From: a virus
Taxonomy: Duplodnaviria > Heunggongvirae > Uroviricota > Caudoviricetes
Strand: one strand, 5' to 3'
IMG/VR virus record: IMGVR_UViG_2939177367_000003
Location: 1-41,062 of that record
Length of the DNA: 41,062 nt
The notes below the pieces were generated by a model. The model saw only the letters and a program-made list of their open reading frames with translations. It made no database searches and was not told the DNA's origin. Of this stretch, positions 35,310-38,862 are shown piece after piece (positions within the stretch are counted from its first letter, which is position 1; each line of letters opens with the position of its first letter). Made by a program: the position numbers and the translations under genes.

Positions 35310-35419
35310 CCAGAACTTGAGTGGTTTTGGGGATGGCGCGAATTGCAGCTGCAAGACAGCGATCGAGAGGATAAGCACCTTGACGCGTCATGCGCCAAAG
35401 CCACTTAAAGGAGACCATC

Positions 35420-35725
35420 ATGGTAACCATTGTCTGGAAAGAATCCAAAGGTACGGCAAAAAGCCGCTACAAAGCTCGCAGAGCAGAACTTATTGCCGAG
35501 CGACGCAGTAATGAAGCACTGGCGCGAAAAATTGCGCTAAAGCTCTCTGGTTGCGTCAAAGCAGACAAAGCAGCATCACTAGGAATCCTTTGCTGCAAGA
35601 AGAAAGAAGAAGTCGTTCGAAAAAATAGAAGTATTTATTACAAAGATTCAACCCCATTAGGAAACAAAATACATGCAGTCCAAAAAATAAAATTGTACAG
35701 TAAACTACCGTACGGTGCTTATTGA
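35420..35725 (+). CDS. N-like transcription antiterminator (arginine-rich motif)
   Basis: N-terminal ARM KSRYKARRAELIAERR resembles lambda N (RRRERRAEKQAQW) and P22 gp24 (KTRRHERRRKLAIER); AGGAG RBS; first gene after PL/nutL. Confidence 0.6.
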   Translation: MVTIVWKESKGTAKSRYKARRAELIAERRSNEALARKIALKLSGCVKADKAASLGILCCKKKEEVVRKNRSIYYKDSTPLGNKIHAVQKIKLYSKLPYGAY

Positions 35726-36066
35726 GTATGCTTATGGTGAAAAAGACTATTTATGTTAATCCTGACCGCGGACAAAACAGAAAAGTATCTGATAGAGGTC
35801 TTACATCTCGAGACAGGAGGAGAATAGCGAGATGGGAAAAGAGGATAGCATATGCATTAAAAAACGGTGTAACACCTGGATTTAATGCTATAGATGACGG
35901 TCCTGAATATAAGATTAATGAAGACCCAATGGATAAAGTTGACAAAGCATTAGCAACACCATTTCCTCGCGATGCCGAAAAAATTGAAGATGAAAAATAT
36001 GAGGATGTAATGCACAGAGTTGTTAATCACGCTCACCAACGAAATCCAAATAAAAAATGGTCATAG
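35722..36066 (+). CDS. Hypothetical protein (basic N-terminus, acidic C-terminus)
   Basis: 114 aa ORF translationally coupled to the N-like gene; no recognisable motif. Confidence 0.3.
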   Translation: MSMLMVKKTIYVNPDRGQNRKVSDRGLTSRDRRRIARWEKRIAYALKNGVTPGFNAIDDGPEYKINEDPMDKVDKALATPFPRDAEKIEDEKYEDVMHRVVNHAHQRNPNKKWS

Positions 36067-36089
36067 CCCACTTCGGTGGGTTTTTTATT
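36066..36089 (+). terminator. Rho-independent terminator
   Basis: CCCAC-TTCG-GTGGG hairpin followed by TTTTTTATT. Confidence 0.6.
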
Positions 36090-36200
36090 GTCTGAACAAA
36101 CCTAATTTACTACCGCAAGCCACGCAGTGAAATGGGTGTGACTTGTGTTGGTCGCCAGAAAATGAAATTAGGCAGCAAACCACTGTATGAGGGGTGATCT

Positions 36201-36452
36201 ATGGAATTTCATGAAAGTGCGATTTATGATTTCCGCGCTAACGCAAATTCAGTAAAACCACAGCCAATTGCAGTTCTTTTTAAAACAATGGGAGCGTGGG
36301 CTGTTTTATGCTTCGCCGCTGATGACACTGACGCAAGAATGGCAATAGGCCAAGAGATGGAGATGGACCCGACAAACGATGAATTCATAATTTATGGCGC
36401 TCCATCTAATTACTTACTTGATACCTGCAACATTTACAACAAGGCTTCCTGA
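36201..36452 (+). CDS. Hypothetical small protein (83 aa)
   Basis: ORF with GAGGGG RBS; no recognisable motif. Confidence 0.35.
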   Translation: MEFHESAIYDFRANANSVKPQPIAVLFKTMGAWAVLCFAADDTDARMAIGQEMEMDPTNDEFIIYGAPSNYLLDTCNIYNKAS

Positions 36453-36491
36453 CGGTGGCCTTTATTTTTGGCATAAACAACAGAGGCTAAC

Positions 36492-36788
36492 ATGGAATTT
36501 AAAGGTACTGAAGGTAAGTGGAAAATAATGATGGATGGCGATGAGATTAAAATCATCCAGGCAGACTCACTTGAAAATGGCGCAGGCTGGCGTTCGTATA
36601 TTGCAATCTGTGAGGAAGTTCAATGCATTGAAGATGCCAATCTAATAGCGGCAGCACCTGACCTTCTCGAAGCACTTCAGTTATTACTTAAGCAAACCAA
36701 AAATAGAACAACGACAACATATCCAGAATGGTATGGAGCTGTTAATAAAGGTCTTGCAGCAATCAGAAAAGCTCTTGGGGAAGAATGA
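36492..36788 (+). CDS. Hypothetical small acidic protein (98 aa)
   Basis: ORF with AGAGG RBS; no recognisable motif. Confidence 0.35.
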   Translation: MEFKGTEGKWKIMMDGDEIKIIQADSLENGAGWRSYIAICEEVQCIEDANLIAAAPDLLEALQLLLKQTKNRTTTTYPEWYGAVNKGLAAIRKALGEE

Positions 36789-36947
36789 TGAATAAGAAAT
36801 ACATTGTTGAAGTTATAGAGCGAGGAACAAAAGAAGTAATTAAACATTTCGAATTTGATAATTATAGAAAAGCTGACCGCGTAGAAGAAGGATTGTTGCG
36901 ACAAAGTAATCTCGAAAAATTTGATGTTGTCATGCGATGCGAATAAG
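36786..36947 (+). CDS. Hypothetical small protein (~52 aa)
   Basis: ATGA-overlapped with preceding ORF; not in the supplied ORF track. Confidence 0.25.
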
Positions 36948-37039
36948 CGCCTATAGCAGATTTACGAGTCTGCTATGTGAGCAATGTCGCTCGTAACTAA
37001 ACAGGAGCCGACTTGTTCTGATTATTGGAAATCTTCTTT

Positions 37040-37064
37040 GCCCTCCAATGTGAGGGCCTTTTTA
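37040..37064 (+). terminator. Rho-independent terminator
   Basis: GCCCTC-CAATGT-GAGGGC hairpin followed by CTTTTTA. Confidence 0.5.
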
Positions 37065-37128
37065 TATGCATACCAATAACGCTTCACTCGAGGCGTTTTC
37101 GTTATGCAATCAAACAGAAGGAGCATCC

Positions 37129-37300
37129 TATGCAACAGTTCGCTATTGCAGGGGCGGCATCGGTTCGCCCTTTCAACCCGATTTTATCGGTACAGCATTC
37201 ACGAAAAAACATTTTAACCGGAGCAGACTTTAAACAACCAAGAATGAAAAGTTTGCTCGAAAAGCTTTGGGATATTTTGAAACAACAAGGCCGTCCATGA
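37129..37300 (+). CDS. cIII: CIII-like FtsH inhibitor
   Basis: MQQFAIAGAASVRPFNP...LLEKLWDILKQQGRP parallels lambda CIII (MQYAIAGWPVAGCPSES...LLERITRKLRDGWKRLIDILNQPG); AGGAG RBS at correct spacing. Confidence 0.6.
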
Positions 37301-37467
37301 GCTTTACAGATAACTGGTCAGACGAAGAATTCATTCGTCAGATGAAAGATTTAATCGGTAACGAAGGAGATATGCATGTCACTTGCAACCACAGTGAAGG
37401 AGAGCAAGTTACAGAGACGCATGTACACGCAGCAGGCGTTAATGTATCGCCAGAAGGGAGATCGTGA
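37297..37467 (+). CDS. Small ORF overlapping cIII stop (Kil-like by position only)
   Basis: ATGA overlap with cIII; 56 aa; overlaps the next ORF in another frame. Confidence 0.25.
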   Translation: MSFTDNWSDEEFIRQMKDLIGNEGDMHVTCNHSEGEQVTETHVHAAGVNVSPEGRS

Positions 37468-37546
37468 AGGTGTTCGCGTATTTTTAAATGCGGCAAAGAC
37501 TGAAGTATTAAATCAGCGTTATTTCCTTGGGCCGTGTCCATTCTGA
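37376..37546 (+). CDS. Small ORF immediately upstream of erf (Arf-like by position only)
   Basis: Strong AGGAG RBS 7 nt upstream; 56 aa MSLATTVKESKLQRRMYTQQALMYRQKGDREGVRVFLNAAK... Confidence 0.35.
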   Translation: MSLATTVKESKLQRRMYTQQALMYRQKGDREGVRVFLNAAKTEVLNQRYFLGPCPF

Positions 37547-37556
37547 GATCAAACAT

Positions 37557-38162
37557 ATGAGCAAAGAATTTTATGCAAGGCTGGCAGCCATTCAGGAGAA
37601 TCTGAACGCGCCAAAGAATCAGTACAACTCATTCGGTAAATATAAATACAGAAGCTGCGAAGACATTCTTGAAGGCGTTAAGCCGTTACTGAATGGCCTG
37701 TTTTTATCAATCAGCGATGAAGTTGTGTTGATTGGTGATCGGTATTACGTGAAAGCAACGGCAACTATTACTGATGGCGAAAACAGTCATACAGCAACCG
37801 CTCTTGCACGAGAGGAAGAAAGCAAGAAAGGAATGGATTCTGCACAAGTTACGGGAGCTACAAGCTCTTATGCACGCAAGTATTGCCTCAATGGTTTGTT
37901 CGGCATTGATGATGCGAAAGATGCAGATACCGACGAGCATAAACATCAGCAGAACGCAGCAGCAAAGCAATCAAAACCATCACCTACACCTGAACAGGTT
38001 CTAAAAGCATTCACTGACGCAGCATTGCAGAAAAACACCGTGGAAGAGCTTAAACAGGCGTTCGCCAAAGCGTGGAAGATGCTCGAAGGCACACCGGAGC
38101 AGCACAAAGCGCAGGACGTTTACAACATCAGACGAGACGAATTAGAAGGAGCGGCTGCTTAA
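37557..38162 (+). CDS. erf: Erf-family single-strand annealing recombinase
   Basis: MSKEFYARLAAIQENLNAPKNQYNSFGKYKYRSCEDILEGVKPLL... matches P22 Erf as recalled; start set at internal Met. Confidence 0.8.
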   Translation: MSKEFYARLAAIQENLNAPKNQYNSFGKYKYRSCEDILEGVKPLLNGLFLSISDEVVLIGDRYYVKATATITDGENSHTATALAREEESKKGMDSAQVTGATSSYARKYCLNGLFGIDDAKDADTDEHKHQQNAAAKQSKPSPTPEQVLKAFTDAALQKNTVEELKQAFAKAWKMLEGTPEQHKAQDVYNIRRDELEGAAA

Positions 38163-38545
38163 TGGCACATTCGATTACTGTAAGACTAAACAAACCCGCA
38201 AGAGAGTTTCAGGCCGGGGAAAATATCGGATTCAACATCCGTGCTGGCGTTCAGTATTACGATCGCCAGACAAAAAAGAAAGAATGGACAAACTACAGCG
38301 CCGTTGTATTTGCCAAGCCGGGAGCGCAAGCGGATTACTACCGTAGTGTTCTTGTTGAAGGTGGCATTGTGGAAATTACCGGAGAAAACATCAGGGTTGA
38401 TGTTTATCAGGGGCAAAATGGTCAATCAATCACTCTTGAATTACTGAATGCAAAGATTGGATTTGCAGCTTCAGGAAATGGCCCGCAGCAGCAAAGTAGT
38501 AACCAGCAGAACACTCCTGTATACGACGATTCCATCCCATTCTGA
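38162..38545 (+). CDS. ssb: Single-stranded DNA-binding protein (short phage SSB)
   Basis: OB-fold-like core and SSB hallmark C-terminal acidic tail ...YDDSIPF; AGGAG RBS; TAATG overlap with erf. Confidence 0.7.
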   Translation: MAHSITVRLNKPAREFQAGENIGFNIRAGVQYYDRQTKKKEWTNYSAVVFAKPGAQADYYRSVLVEGGIVEITGENIRVDVYQGQNGQSITLELLNAKIGFAASGNGPQQQSSNQQNTPVYDDSIPF

Positions 38546-38568
38546 TTTAGAAAAATAAGGATTTAATT

Positions 38569-38862
38569 ATGCCAGCGCCTCTGTATGGTGCGGACGACGC
38601 GCGCCGCTGTTCCGGCAATTCCGTATCGGAGGTGCTGGATAAATTCAGAAAAAACTACGATCGAATAATGTCTCTACCGCAGGAAACGAAAGAGGAAAAG
38701 GAATTTCGCCACTGTATATGGCTTGCAGAGAAAGAAGAACGCGAGCGAATTTACCAGACATCAATCCGACCATTCCGCAAAGCTACATATACCCACTTCC
38801 ATGAAATTGACCCGCGCCTGCGTAATTACCGCTCACGCTATGGCGCTATCAGTAATGACTGA
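38569..38862 (+). CDS. Hypothetical protein (97 aa)
   Basis: ORF with TAAGGA RBS; no recognisable motif. Confidence 0.3.

Follow-up and report, generated by a model that had tools for sequence, protein, structure and literature searches.

The window analysed here is the whole 41,062-nucleotide (nt) stretch of the IMG/VR virus record IMGVR_UViG_2939177367_000003 (Caudoviricetes), and the elements in question are two overlapping small open reading frames (ORFs), designated ORF2 and ORF3, which lie between a cIII-like gene and erf. This region opens the recombination module of a lambdoid early-left (PL) operon that lacks kil; the operon spans positions 35390–38862, and the + strand is the PL direction since cI, cro, cII and O are located upstream. 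We consider it likely that ORF2 and ORF3 are two separate translated small genes, each encoding a peptide of approximately 6 kDa that is accessory to the recombination module of this kil-less operon. The features on which this proposal is built are the following.

37130–37300, + strand: cIII-like ORF of 56 amino acids (aa), from ATG 37130 to TGA 37300
37297–37467, + strand: ORF2, 56 aa, the ATG of which overlaps the cIII stop codon as ATGA
37363–37369, + strand: Shine–Dalgarno (SD) sequence of ORF3, GAAGGAG, 6 nt before ATG 37376 and within ORF2 codons 23–25
37376–37546, + strand: ORF3, 56 aa, starting 79 nt after ORF2 and therefore in the +1 frame relative to it
37376–37467, + strand: 92-nt overlap between the tail of ORF2 and the first helix and turn of ORF3
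37557–38162, + strand: erf, encoding an Erf-family single-strand annealing protein (Pfam PF04404 (ERF), E = 2e-44; phrog_155, E = 1.6e-57)

This arrangement, namely a cIII gene, an ATGA-coupled 56-aa ORF and an overlapping 56-aa ORF with a strong ribosome-binding site just before erf, had been described in an initial sequence-only reading of the DNA, and it is confirmed by the sequence and by the ORF list; the coordinates were exact except for the start, placed at 37129, one base before the ATG. The same reading had likened the region by position to the P22 order c3-kil-arf-erf, an equivalence that did not survive the comparisons described below.

ORF3, a member of the HkaM/gp42 family

As judged from its profile matches, ORF3 is a real gene of the HkaM/HK97 gp42/Sf6 gp29 family. 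The protein matches phrog_1723 with E = 4.5e-34, its residues 1–56 being aligned with positions 3–58 of the 58 in the profile, and the same profile is matched by all 10 of the ORF3-family members that were aligned. The products of HK022_42 and mEp234_030 are 100% identical to ORF3 and Sf6 gp29 is 82% identical, while HK620 HkaM was recovered by hhalign against the ORF3-family profile with 92% probability (E = 7e-7). The family is small, with approximately 21 representatives at 50% identity after word-indexed and exhaustive profile searches of 1.8 billion proteins. Its members are 56–62 aa long and conserve the motifs LAxTxxES, ALxYRxxG[DN]R and LNL[AS]RxE, and they end in an invariant [YFH]FLGxxPF-COOH, in which the Leu, Gly and Pro codons vary synonymously and the residues are fixed. 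The ratio of nonsynonymous to synonymous substitution rates (dN/dS) is 0.12–0.26 where dS is unsaturated, and the SD sequence GAAGGAG is invariant in the alignment of the window with HK022/HK97-type relatives.

The ORF3 protein is basic (isoelectric point (pI), 10.1), and AlphaFold2 models it as a helical hairpin, with helices at residues 7–26 and 30–51 followed by a free five-residue tail (mean predicted local distance difference test score (pLDDT), 86.8). When the PDB was searched with this model, the matches were all generic helical hairpins (best E = 2.2), no sequence or profile match in the PDB fell below E = 0.058, and neither ORF2 nor ORF3 has a Pfam family at E ≤ 1. ORF3 agrees with the HkaM/gp42 proteins in size, hairpin prediction, C-terminal PF and position right before the annealing gene; no substantive difference was found, ORF3 being here overlapped by ORF2 and having cIII instead of kil upstream. 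In the arf slot of P22, just before erf, the window has ORF3, an HkaM/gp42 protein without homology to Arf. The possibility that it corresponds to the C-terminal half of Arf, P22 Arf being a condensed ORF2–ORF3 fusion, was rejected, the hhalign value (P = 0.3) being equal to that of the reversed control.

Association of ORF3 with the annealing gene

In the contexts examined, the position of ORF3 by the annealing gene is fixed, irrespective of the type of annealing protein. The gene that directly follows encodes Erf in the window and in loci L014, L100, L102, L105 and L106, a Rad52_Rad22-type protein in L098, L103 and L104, and a Sak4/AAA_24 protein in L013, L101 and HK620. The gap between the two genes is 10 nt in the window and 7–9 nt in L098, L100, L102, L103, L105 and L106, and the genes overlap in L013 and L014. 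The sole exception to adjacency seen is in Salmonella phage vB_SalP_ABTNLsp11242 (L191, 1379–1849), where a gene for an HNH endonuclease lies between the ORF3 homologue and erf. The SD of the annealing gene, TGAGGTGA, typically arises where GGTGA comes after the ORF3 stop codon. In E. coli loci, a 100%-identical ORF3 is followed by a gene for either a 201-aa Erf or a 235-aa Rad52-type protein; a mosaic joint is therefore placed exactly at the ORF3 stop codon and the SD of the annealing gene. ORF3 is also independent of ORF2, because many loci (L014, L098, L100, L101, L102, L103, L105, L106 and HK620) have ORF3 without ORF2.

The last approximately 55 residues of Erf (window positions 37980–38159) have homologues at the C-terminal ends of Rad52-type (L098, L103) and Sak4-type (L013) proteins and, more weakly, of a RecT (L097); they are absent from HK620 Sak4. 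This shared C-terminus of annealing proteins corresponds to the known 'Erf domain swap' (PMC2629481). It was considered whether ORF3 is the partner of this domain. The idea was dropped since domain and ORF3 show no specific correlation: HK620 Sak4, without the domain, is accompanied by HkaM, and P22 Erf has the domain without ORF3.

ORF2, an acidic peptide with an Arf-like N-terminus

ORF2 matches phrog_2123 along its full length (E = 1.7e-39) and also phrog_17766. It is the counterpart of Sf6 gene 30, HK022_42.1 and the N-terminal part of HK97 gp42.1; the ATGA coupling and the overlap with a gp42-type gene are the same, with the difference that ORF2 is 56 aa long in the window and 52 aa in the Sf6/HK97-type allele. 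Its length varies: the two E. coli alleles have 52 and 56 aa, a Pseudocitrobacter prophage (L013) has 53 aa, and a short form that ends in an acidic stretch has 31–35 aa. Relatives in the databases have the start MSFTDNWSDEEFIRQMKE in common and diverge afterwards. The start codon is ATGA-coupled to the upstream gene, be that cIII, as here, or kil, as in HK022; the Pseudocitrobacter homologue, which is 52% identical, has the same stop–start coupling in the form GTGA. L097 has no ORF3; there, a free-standing 35-aa ORF2-like peptide is encoded between the same type of cIII and a RecT module. In the AlphaFold2 model of ORF2 the only helix is at residues 9–20 (pLDDT, 73–84), the rest of the peptide scoring below 60.

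Proteins of the ORF2 family yielded matches to the Arf profile phrog_2445 (E = 0.009 for the window, 0.046, and 8e-4 for the L013 homologue), and in these alignments ORF2 residues approximately 4–27 always fall against Arf residues 2–25. When the profile of the ORF2 N-terminus was compared with Arf by hhalign, P was 1.3e-4 (0.08 for the reversed control) and the probability 54%, over 19 columns with 42% identity around (F/W)SDEEFI. ORF2 thus carries the N-terminal F-[SD]-D-[ED]-E-F-I helix of Arf and, like P22 Arf, it is small and acidic (pI 4.55; Arf, 4.05) and is encoded in the operon slot that has cIII/kil on one side and the gene for the annealing protein on the other. It differs from P22 Arf in being separated from erf by ORF3, of which P22 has no homologue, and in lacking both PF17585 and the EQQINLAAERQNPxIxWDEFAGYYS half; in place of that C-terminal half (EQQINLAAERQNP..W.EFAGYYS) ORF2 has an unrelated tail of variable length that is predicted to be disordered. 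The comparison with P22 Arf and Kil that the sequence-only reading had called for thus gave an Arf-like N-terminus for ORF2 and no detectable homology to Kil.

P22 Arf helps recombination, is not essential and acts by a mechanism that is unknown; there has been speculation that it mimics DNA (PMC12315714; PMC9836394). Genetically, it is characterised by its stimulation of recombination through Erf in vivo (Poteete et al. 1991, cited in PMC12315714).

Two variants of ORF2 (P0029 and P0036) contain one or two tandem duplications of the seven-residue EFIRQMK, within the conserved helix and with the frame intact; an 18-nt insertion in L146 may be of the same kind.

Frame constraint in the overlap

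The analysis of constraint was anchored on Erf, so as not to select on either ORF2 or ORF3; it replaced an earlier scan of viral contigs with the ORF3 profile, which gave only 100%-identical copies and was biased for this purpose. In the Erf-anchored sample, 75 loci span the region, 73 of them without an insertion or deletion, and both ORFs are intact in all 54 distinct sequences. The polymorphic columns are distributed as follows.

ORF2-only segment (79 nt): 21 polymorphic columns, 13 at ORF2 third positions (p = 0.007) and 4 at ORF3 third positions
Overlap: 18 polymorphic columns, 3 at ORF2 third positions and 11 at ORF3 third positions (p = 0.014)
ORF3-only segment: 31 polymorphic columns, 6 at ORF2 third positions and 16 at ORF3 third positions

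The non-overlapping N-terminal part of ORF2 has a dN/dS of 0.17. Within the overlap, comparison of the window with the Pseudocitrobacter prophage shows 22 of 29 residues identical in the ORF3 frame, with dS saturated, and 8 of 28 identical in the ORF2 frame, where dN is 0.585 versus a dS of 0.154 (dN/dS approx. 3.8). The run of 30 codons by which ORF2 extends into ORF3 needs no selection, because in ORF3 genes without ORF2 the equivalent frame is open for 2–56 codons after the start. From these patterns the locus appears to hold two genes but only one constrained protein, that of ORF3, in the overlap, the last approximately 30 residues of ORF2 being a by-product; the conservation of ORF2 is confined to its first approximately 25 residues. 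The sequence-only reading had named the conservation of a single frame among related phages as an outcome that would speak against it: in the overlap only the ORF3 frame is conserved, but ORF2 is conserved in its N-terminal part, which does not overlap.

These data bear on the view, taken by the NCBI Prokaryotic Genome Annotation Pipeline (PGAP), that ORF3 is the only gene and ORF2 a chance frame, the 79-nt unique part of which is the leader and ribosome-binding site of ORF3. PGAP and the mEp234 record annotate just ORF3, the tail of ORF2 is unconstrained and disordered, ORF3 is often present without ORF2, and ORF2 has no Pfam family. However, in the unique 79 nt the polymorphic sites are mostly at ORF2 third positions and dN/dS is low, a 52%-identical homologue with its own GTGA coupling is found in Pseudocitrobacter, the same N-terminus is borne by the free-standing ORF before RecT, the match to the Arf N-terminus is reproducible, and the ORF2 start is always coupled through ATGA to cIII or kil. 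We therefore consider it unlikely that ORF3 stands by itself, and take ORF2 to be probably a real gene, of which only the N-terminus would matter.

A different interpretation would join the two frames, through a programmed +1 frameshift, into an Arf–HkaM fusion of approximately 82 aa, the separate ORFs not being functional products. In line with it, the frame of ORF3 is +1 relative to that of ORF2, the window allele has an SD-like AAGGGAG just ahead of the ORF2 stop codon, and the 83-aa gp42.1 of HK97 encodes the fusion directly, as do several other independent in-frame fusions, including P0010, P0013, P0016, P0041, P0048, P0049, P0056 and P0057. However, ORF3 has a strong SD and an ATG of its own and stands alone in many phages, the junction is different in each variant, fusions are rare (1 of 75 loci in the Erf-anchored sample, namely HK97), and no significant RNA structure was found (z = −0.46). 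Nor is there a conserved shift site, because the two main alleles end ORF2 differently (52 versus 56 aa, in different stop contexts). A programmed frameshift was rejected on these grounds and is, of the explanations weighed here, the one to which we assign the smallest chance. In HK97 (L002, 1899–2150), two 1-nt insertions in a divergent patch bring the N-terminus of ORF2 and the C-terminus of ORF3 into one frame. The in-frame fusions are of approximately 82 aa, with junctions all inside the overlap, and P0056 is found on 36 contigs; the fusions may be frameshifts that are tolerated, errors of sequencing or a sign that both peptides act together.

The cIII-like gene and the absence of kil

The protein encoded upstream of ORF2 matches phrog_550 'CIII' (E = 1e-22) and gave no match to Pfam Lambda_CIII (PF02061) at E ≤ 1. 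An N-terminal MQxxAIAG and a C-terminal LxxILxQxGxP are common to it and to the CIII proteins of lambda and P22, from which it departs in the central helix. In lambda CIII, a helix in the central segment carries the FtsH-inhibiting activity. Homologues of this divergent 56-aa type are present in the Pseudocitrobacter prophage and in L103.

HK022, HK97, mEp234 and Sf6 have cIII, kil, ORF2, ORF3 and erf in that order, with kil ATGA-coupled to ORF2. When aligned, the cIII-like DNA of the window is unrelated to the cIII+kil segment of HK022 up to the ATGA junction, so that the window, together with HK542, has a different, longer cIII-type gene in place of that segment. No kil was found in the whole window by tblastn with the lambda, HK97, P22, KilR and Erwinia Kil proteins, and no kil of any known type was detected in the phage by tblastn or Pfam. 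The phage is therefore without kil, and its divergent cIII module adjoins ORF2 directly. The kil-less arrangement is present in 18 of 80 ORF3-anchored viral loci.

The P22-like order c3-kil-arf-erf does not hold: neither ORF is Kil, and the kil of relatives lies between cIII and ORF2 and is absent here. Neither ORF2 nor ORF3 matches the Kil PHROGs (phrog_2055 and phrog_3924 for the lambda/HK97 type, phrog_2394 for the P22 type) or Pfam Lambda_Kil (PF06301), and hhalign of ORF2 with Kil gave a probability of 0.1%. With Kil of the lambda/HK97 type and of P22 only the general setting is alike, in that the PL operon has a gene for a small protein right behind cIII.

The absence of kil raises the question of whether ORF3 is a Kil-like inhibitor of cell division, a diverged paralogue that supplies the missing function. 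ORF3 is small and helical and lies in the PL operon, and a turn of the form A-[LV]-[IMA]-x-R-x-x-G-[DN] can be seen by eye in ORF3 and in lambda/HK97 Kil; hhalign selects exactly that turn (P = 0.024, versus 0.66 for the reversed control), but with a probability of just 2%. No member of the ORF3 family matches any Kil PHROG, even at E ≤ 10, and no Kil is among the 21 matches of the profile search of 1.8 billion proteins. Moreover, most phages have both kil and ORF3, which argues against redundancy, and ORF3 keeps to the annealing gene, not to cIII or kil. Homology of ORF3 to Kil is thus not supported, and a Kil-like role is very unlikely, if slightly less so than the frameshift.

Relatives and existing annotation

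Over 700 nt, the region shares 98% identity with phage HK542 and the PhiR12 phages. The cassette is found in 1105 of 5426 complete E. coli genomes (approx. 20%), and also in HK022, HK97, Sf6, HK620 and Shiga toxin (Stx) phages. The 79-nt offset between the ORF2 and ORF3 starts is identical in every E. coli-type relative examined; the Pseudocitrobacter prophage has the same arrangement with a 76-nt offset and an ORF3 protein that is 68% identical. With full-length matches to phage families and a recurring offset, ORF2 and ORF3 are, on this comparative evidence, not a chance pair of ORFs.

The annotation of the pair varies from record to record. The HK542 record has cIII and ORF2 and not ORF3, whereas the mEp234 record and the RefSeq/PGAP E. 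coli genomes have ORF3 and not ORF2. Both are carried in HK022, as 42.1 (ORF2) and 42 (ORF3), and in Sf6, as genes 30 (ORF2) and 29 (ORF3), while the HK97 record has the 83-aa gp42.1 with an internal start for gp42. The overlapping pair has thus been on record since 2000–2004, as hypothetical proteins throughout. In RefSeq records (HK542, HK97, Sf6, HK620), the product name 'recombinase' has been applied to both small ORFs and to hkaM, apparently taken from the labels of phrog_1723 and phrog_2123, which are both 'recombinase'. For ORF2 and ORF3 the label appears to be unfounded, as no similarity to a recombinase is seen in sequence or predicted fold, and it is suspected that it was given from gene position. 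HK620 HkaM itself was first named 'arf' by position and later declared an orphan (PMC5928155), and a literature search on hkaM, gp42.1 and related names returned nothing relevant besides that paper.

Operon setting

The neighbouring features of the PL operon are the following.

36785–36946: 53-aa ORF (phrog_6949)
37040–37057, + strand: intrinsic-terminator-like hairpin (tL-type) upstream of cIII, from a terminator scan
37078–37097: second terminator-like hairpin upstream of cIII, from the same scan
38162–38545, + strand: gene for a protein like the single-stranded DNA-binding protein (SSB), of the HK97 gp40 type, with C-terminal DDSIPF (phrog_44, E = 2.9e-27)
38569–38862, + strand: abc2 (anti-RecBCD; Pfam PF11043, E = 3e-63)

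Both hairpins sit between the 53-aa ORF and cIII, and tL terminators are annotated at the same position in HK97 and HK620. The chain from cIII through ORF2, ORF3 and erf to the SSB-like gene is tightly packed: cIII and ORF2 are joined by ATGA, the SD of ORF3 is internal to ORF2, a 10-nt gap separates the ORF3 stop codon from the erf ATG (37557), and the start of the SSB-like gene overlaps the erf stop codon as TAATG.

A further terminator-like hairpin with a T-run (CGTGAAGGTGTTCGCG TATTTTT) lies at 37463–37478, inside ORF3 and exactly at the ORF2 stop codon; it is not kept in the HK97-type allele, and HK620 annotates a terminator, tL2D, comparably inside hkaM. On the minus strand, a 72-aa antisense ORF (37338–37556) covers all of ORF3, probably as a by-product of the constraint on the sense frame.

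Proposed mechanism and its weighing

In the explanation that we favour, ORF2 would be translated by ATGA coupling to whichever gene precedes it, cIII here and kil in HK022, and its functional part would be an amphipathic helix at the N-terminus, WSDEEFIRQMKDLI, similar to the N-terminus of P22 Arf. Ribosomes on ORF2 would then pass through the initiation site of ORF3 as far as the first in-frame stop codon, and this run-on would give the peptide a disordered tail of 26–30 residues, the sequence of which is dictated by ORF3. ORF3 would initiate independently at its own strong SD inside ORF2, and its product would be a basic helical hairpin with the FLGxxPF end, its gene stopping 7–10 nt before that for the annealing protein. 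An RNA structure that sequesters the ORF3 SD and is opened by translation of ORF2 was also considered and rejected, the fold having a z-score of −0.46 and the SD being unpaired. Both proteins most likely assist phage recombination as accessory factors that are not essential. The target of ORF3 is probably DNA or a partner in the host or SSB pathway, and not one particular annealing protein: because ORF3 accompanies three unrelated annealing cores, DNA, SSB or a host factor is the likelier partner.

Several points weigh against this proposal. The case for the translation of ORF2 and ORF3 is drawn from sequence. ORF2 has a weak SD (AAGG) and is not annotated by PGAP; its similarity to Arf is limited to 18–19 N-terminal residues, and the Pfam Arf model PF17585, which all true Arf homologues have, gives no match to it at E ≤ 1. 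The adjacency of ORF3 and the annealing gene could stem from operon order and the mosaic joint, not from function. Furthermore, in the one experiment found on the ORF3 family, sak4 and ssb of HK620 gave the full activity of the whole module in oligonucleotide recombineering (PMC5928155), so that hkaM was dispensable, which speaks against a role in that process.

A more specific version, which we regard as improbable, though less so than a Kil-like role for ORF3 or a frameshift, has the accessory function of Erf-type modules split between the acidic helix of ORF2 and the hairpin of ORF3, with the ORF3 tail docking where a DNA-processing protein of host or phage has its pocket for the SSB tail. 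The tip of E. coli SSB is DFDDDIPF, and the ORF3 tail, F-x4-P-F-COOH, has the same spacing but is without acidic residues. Docking into such a pocket, if true, would explain how ORF3 travels with any annealing core (Erf, Rad52-type or Sak4), and the sporadic ORF2–ORF3 fusions, such as HK97 gp42.1, would then be Rosetta-stone evidence for joint action.

The cassette is ordinary as lambdoid PL operons go, and several reference phages already have it annotated. The annotation is tidied by the present analysis in that the erf-adjacent ORF is assigned to the HkaM family rather than to Arf or Kil, the Arf-like element is confined to an N-terminal helix of approximately 20 residues, and the overlap does not code for two constrained proteins. 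The interest that remains is that both families are functionally uncharacterised despite their place at the head of the recombination module; they also offer a small and defined target for work on accessory factors of Erf, Sak or Sak4.

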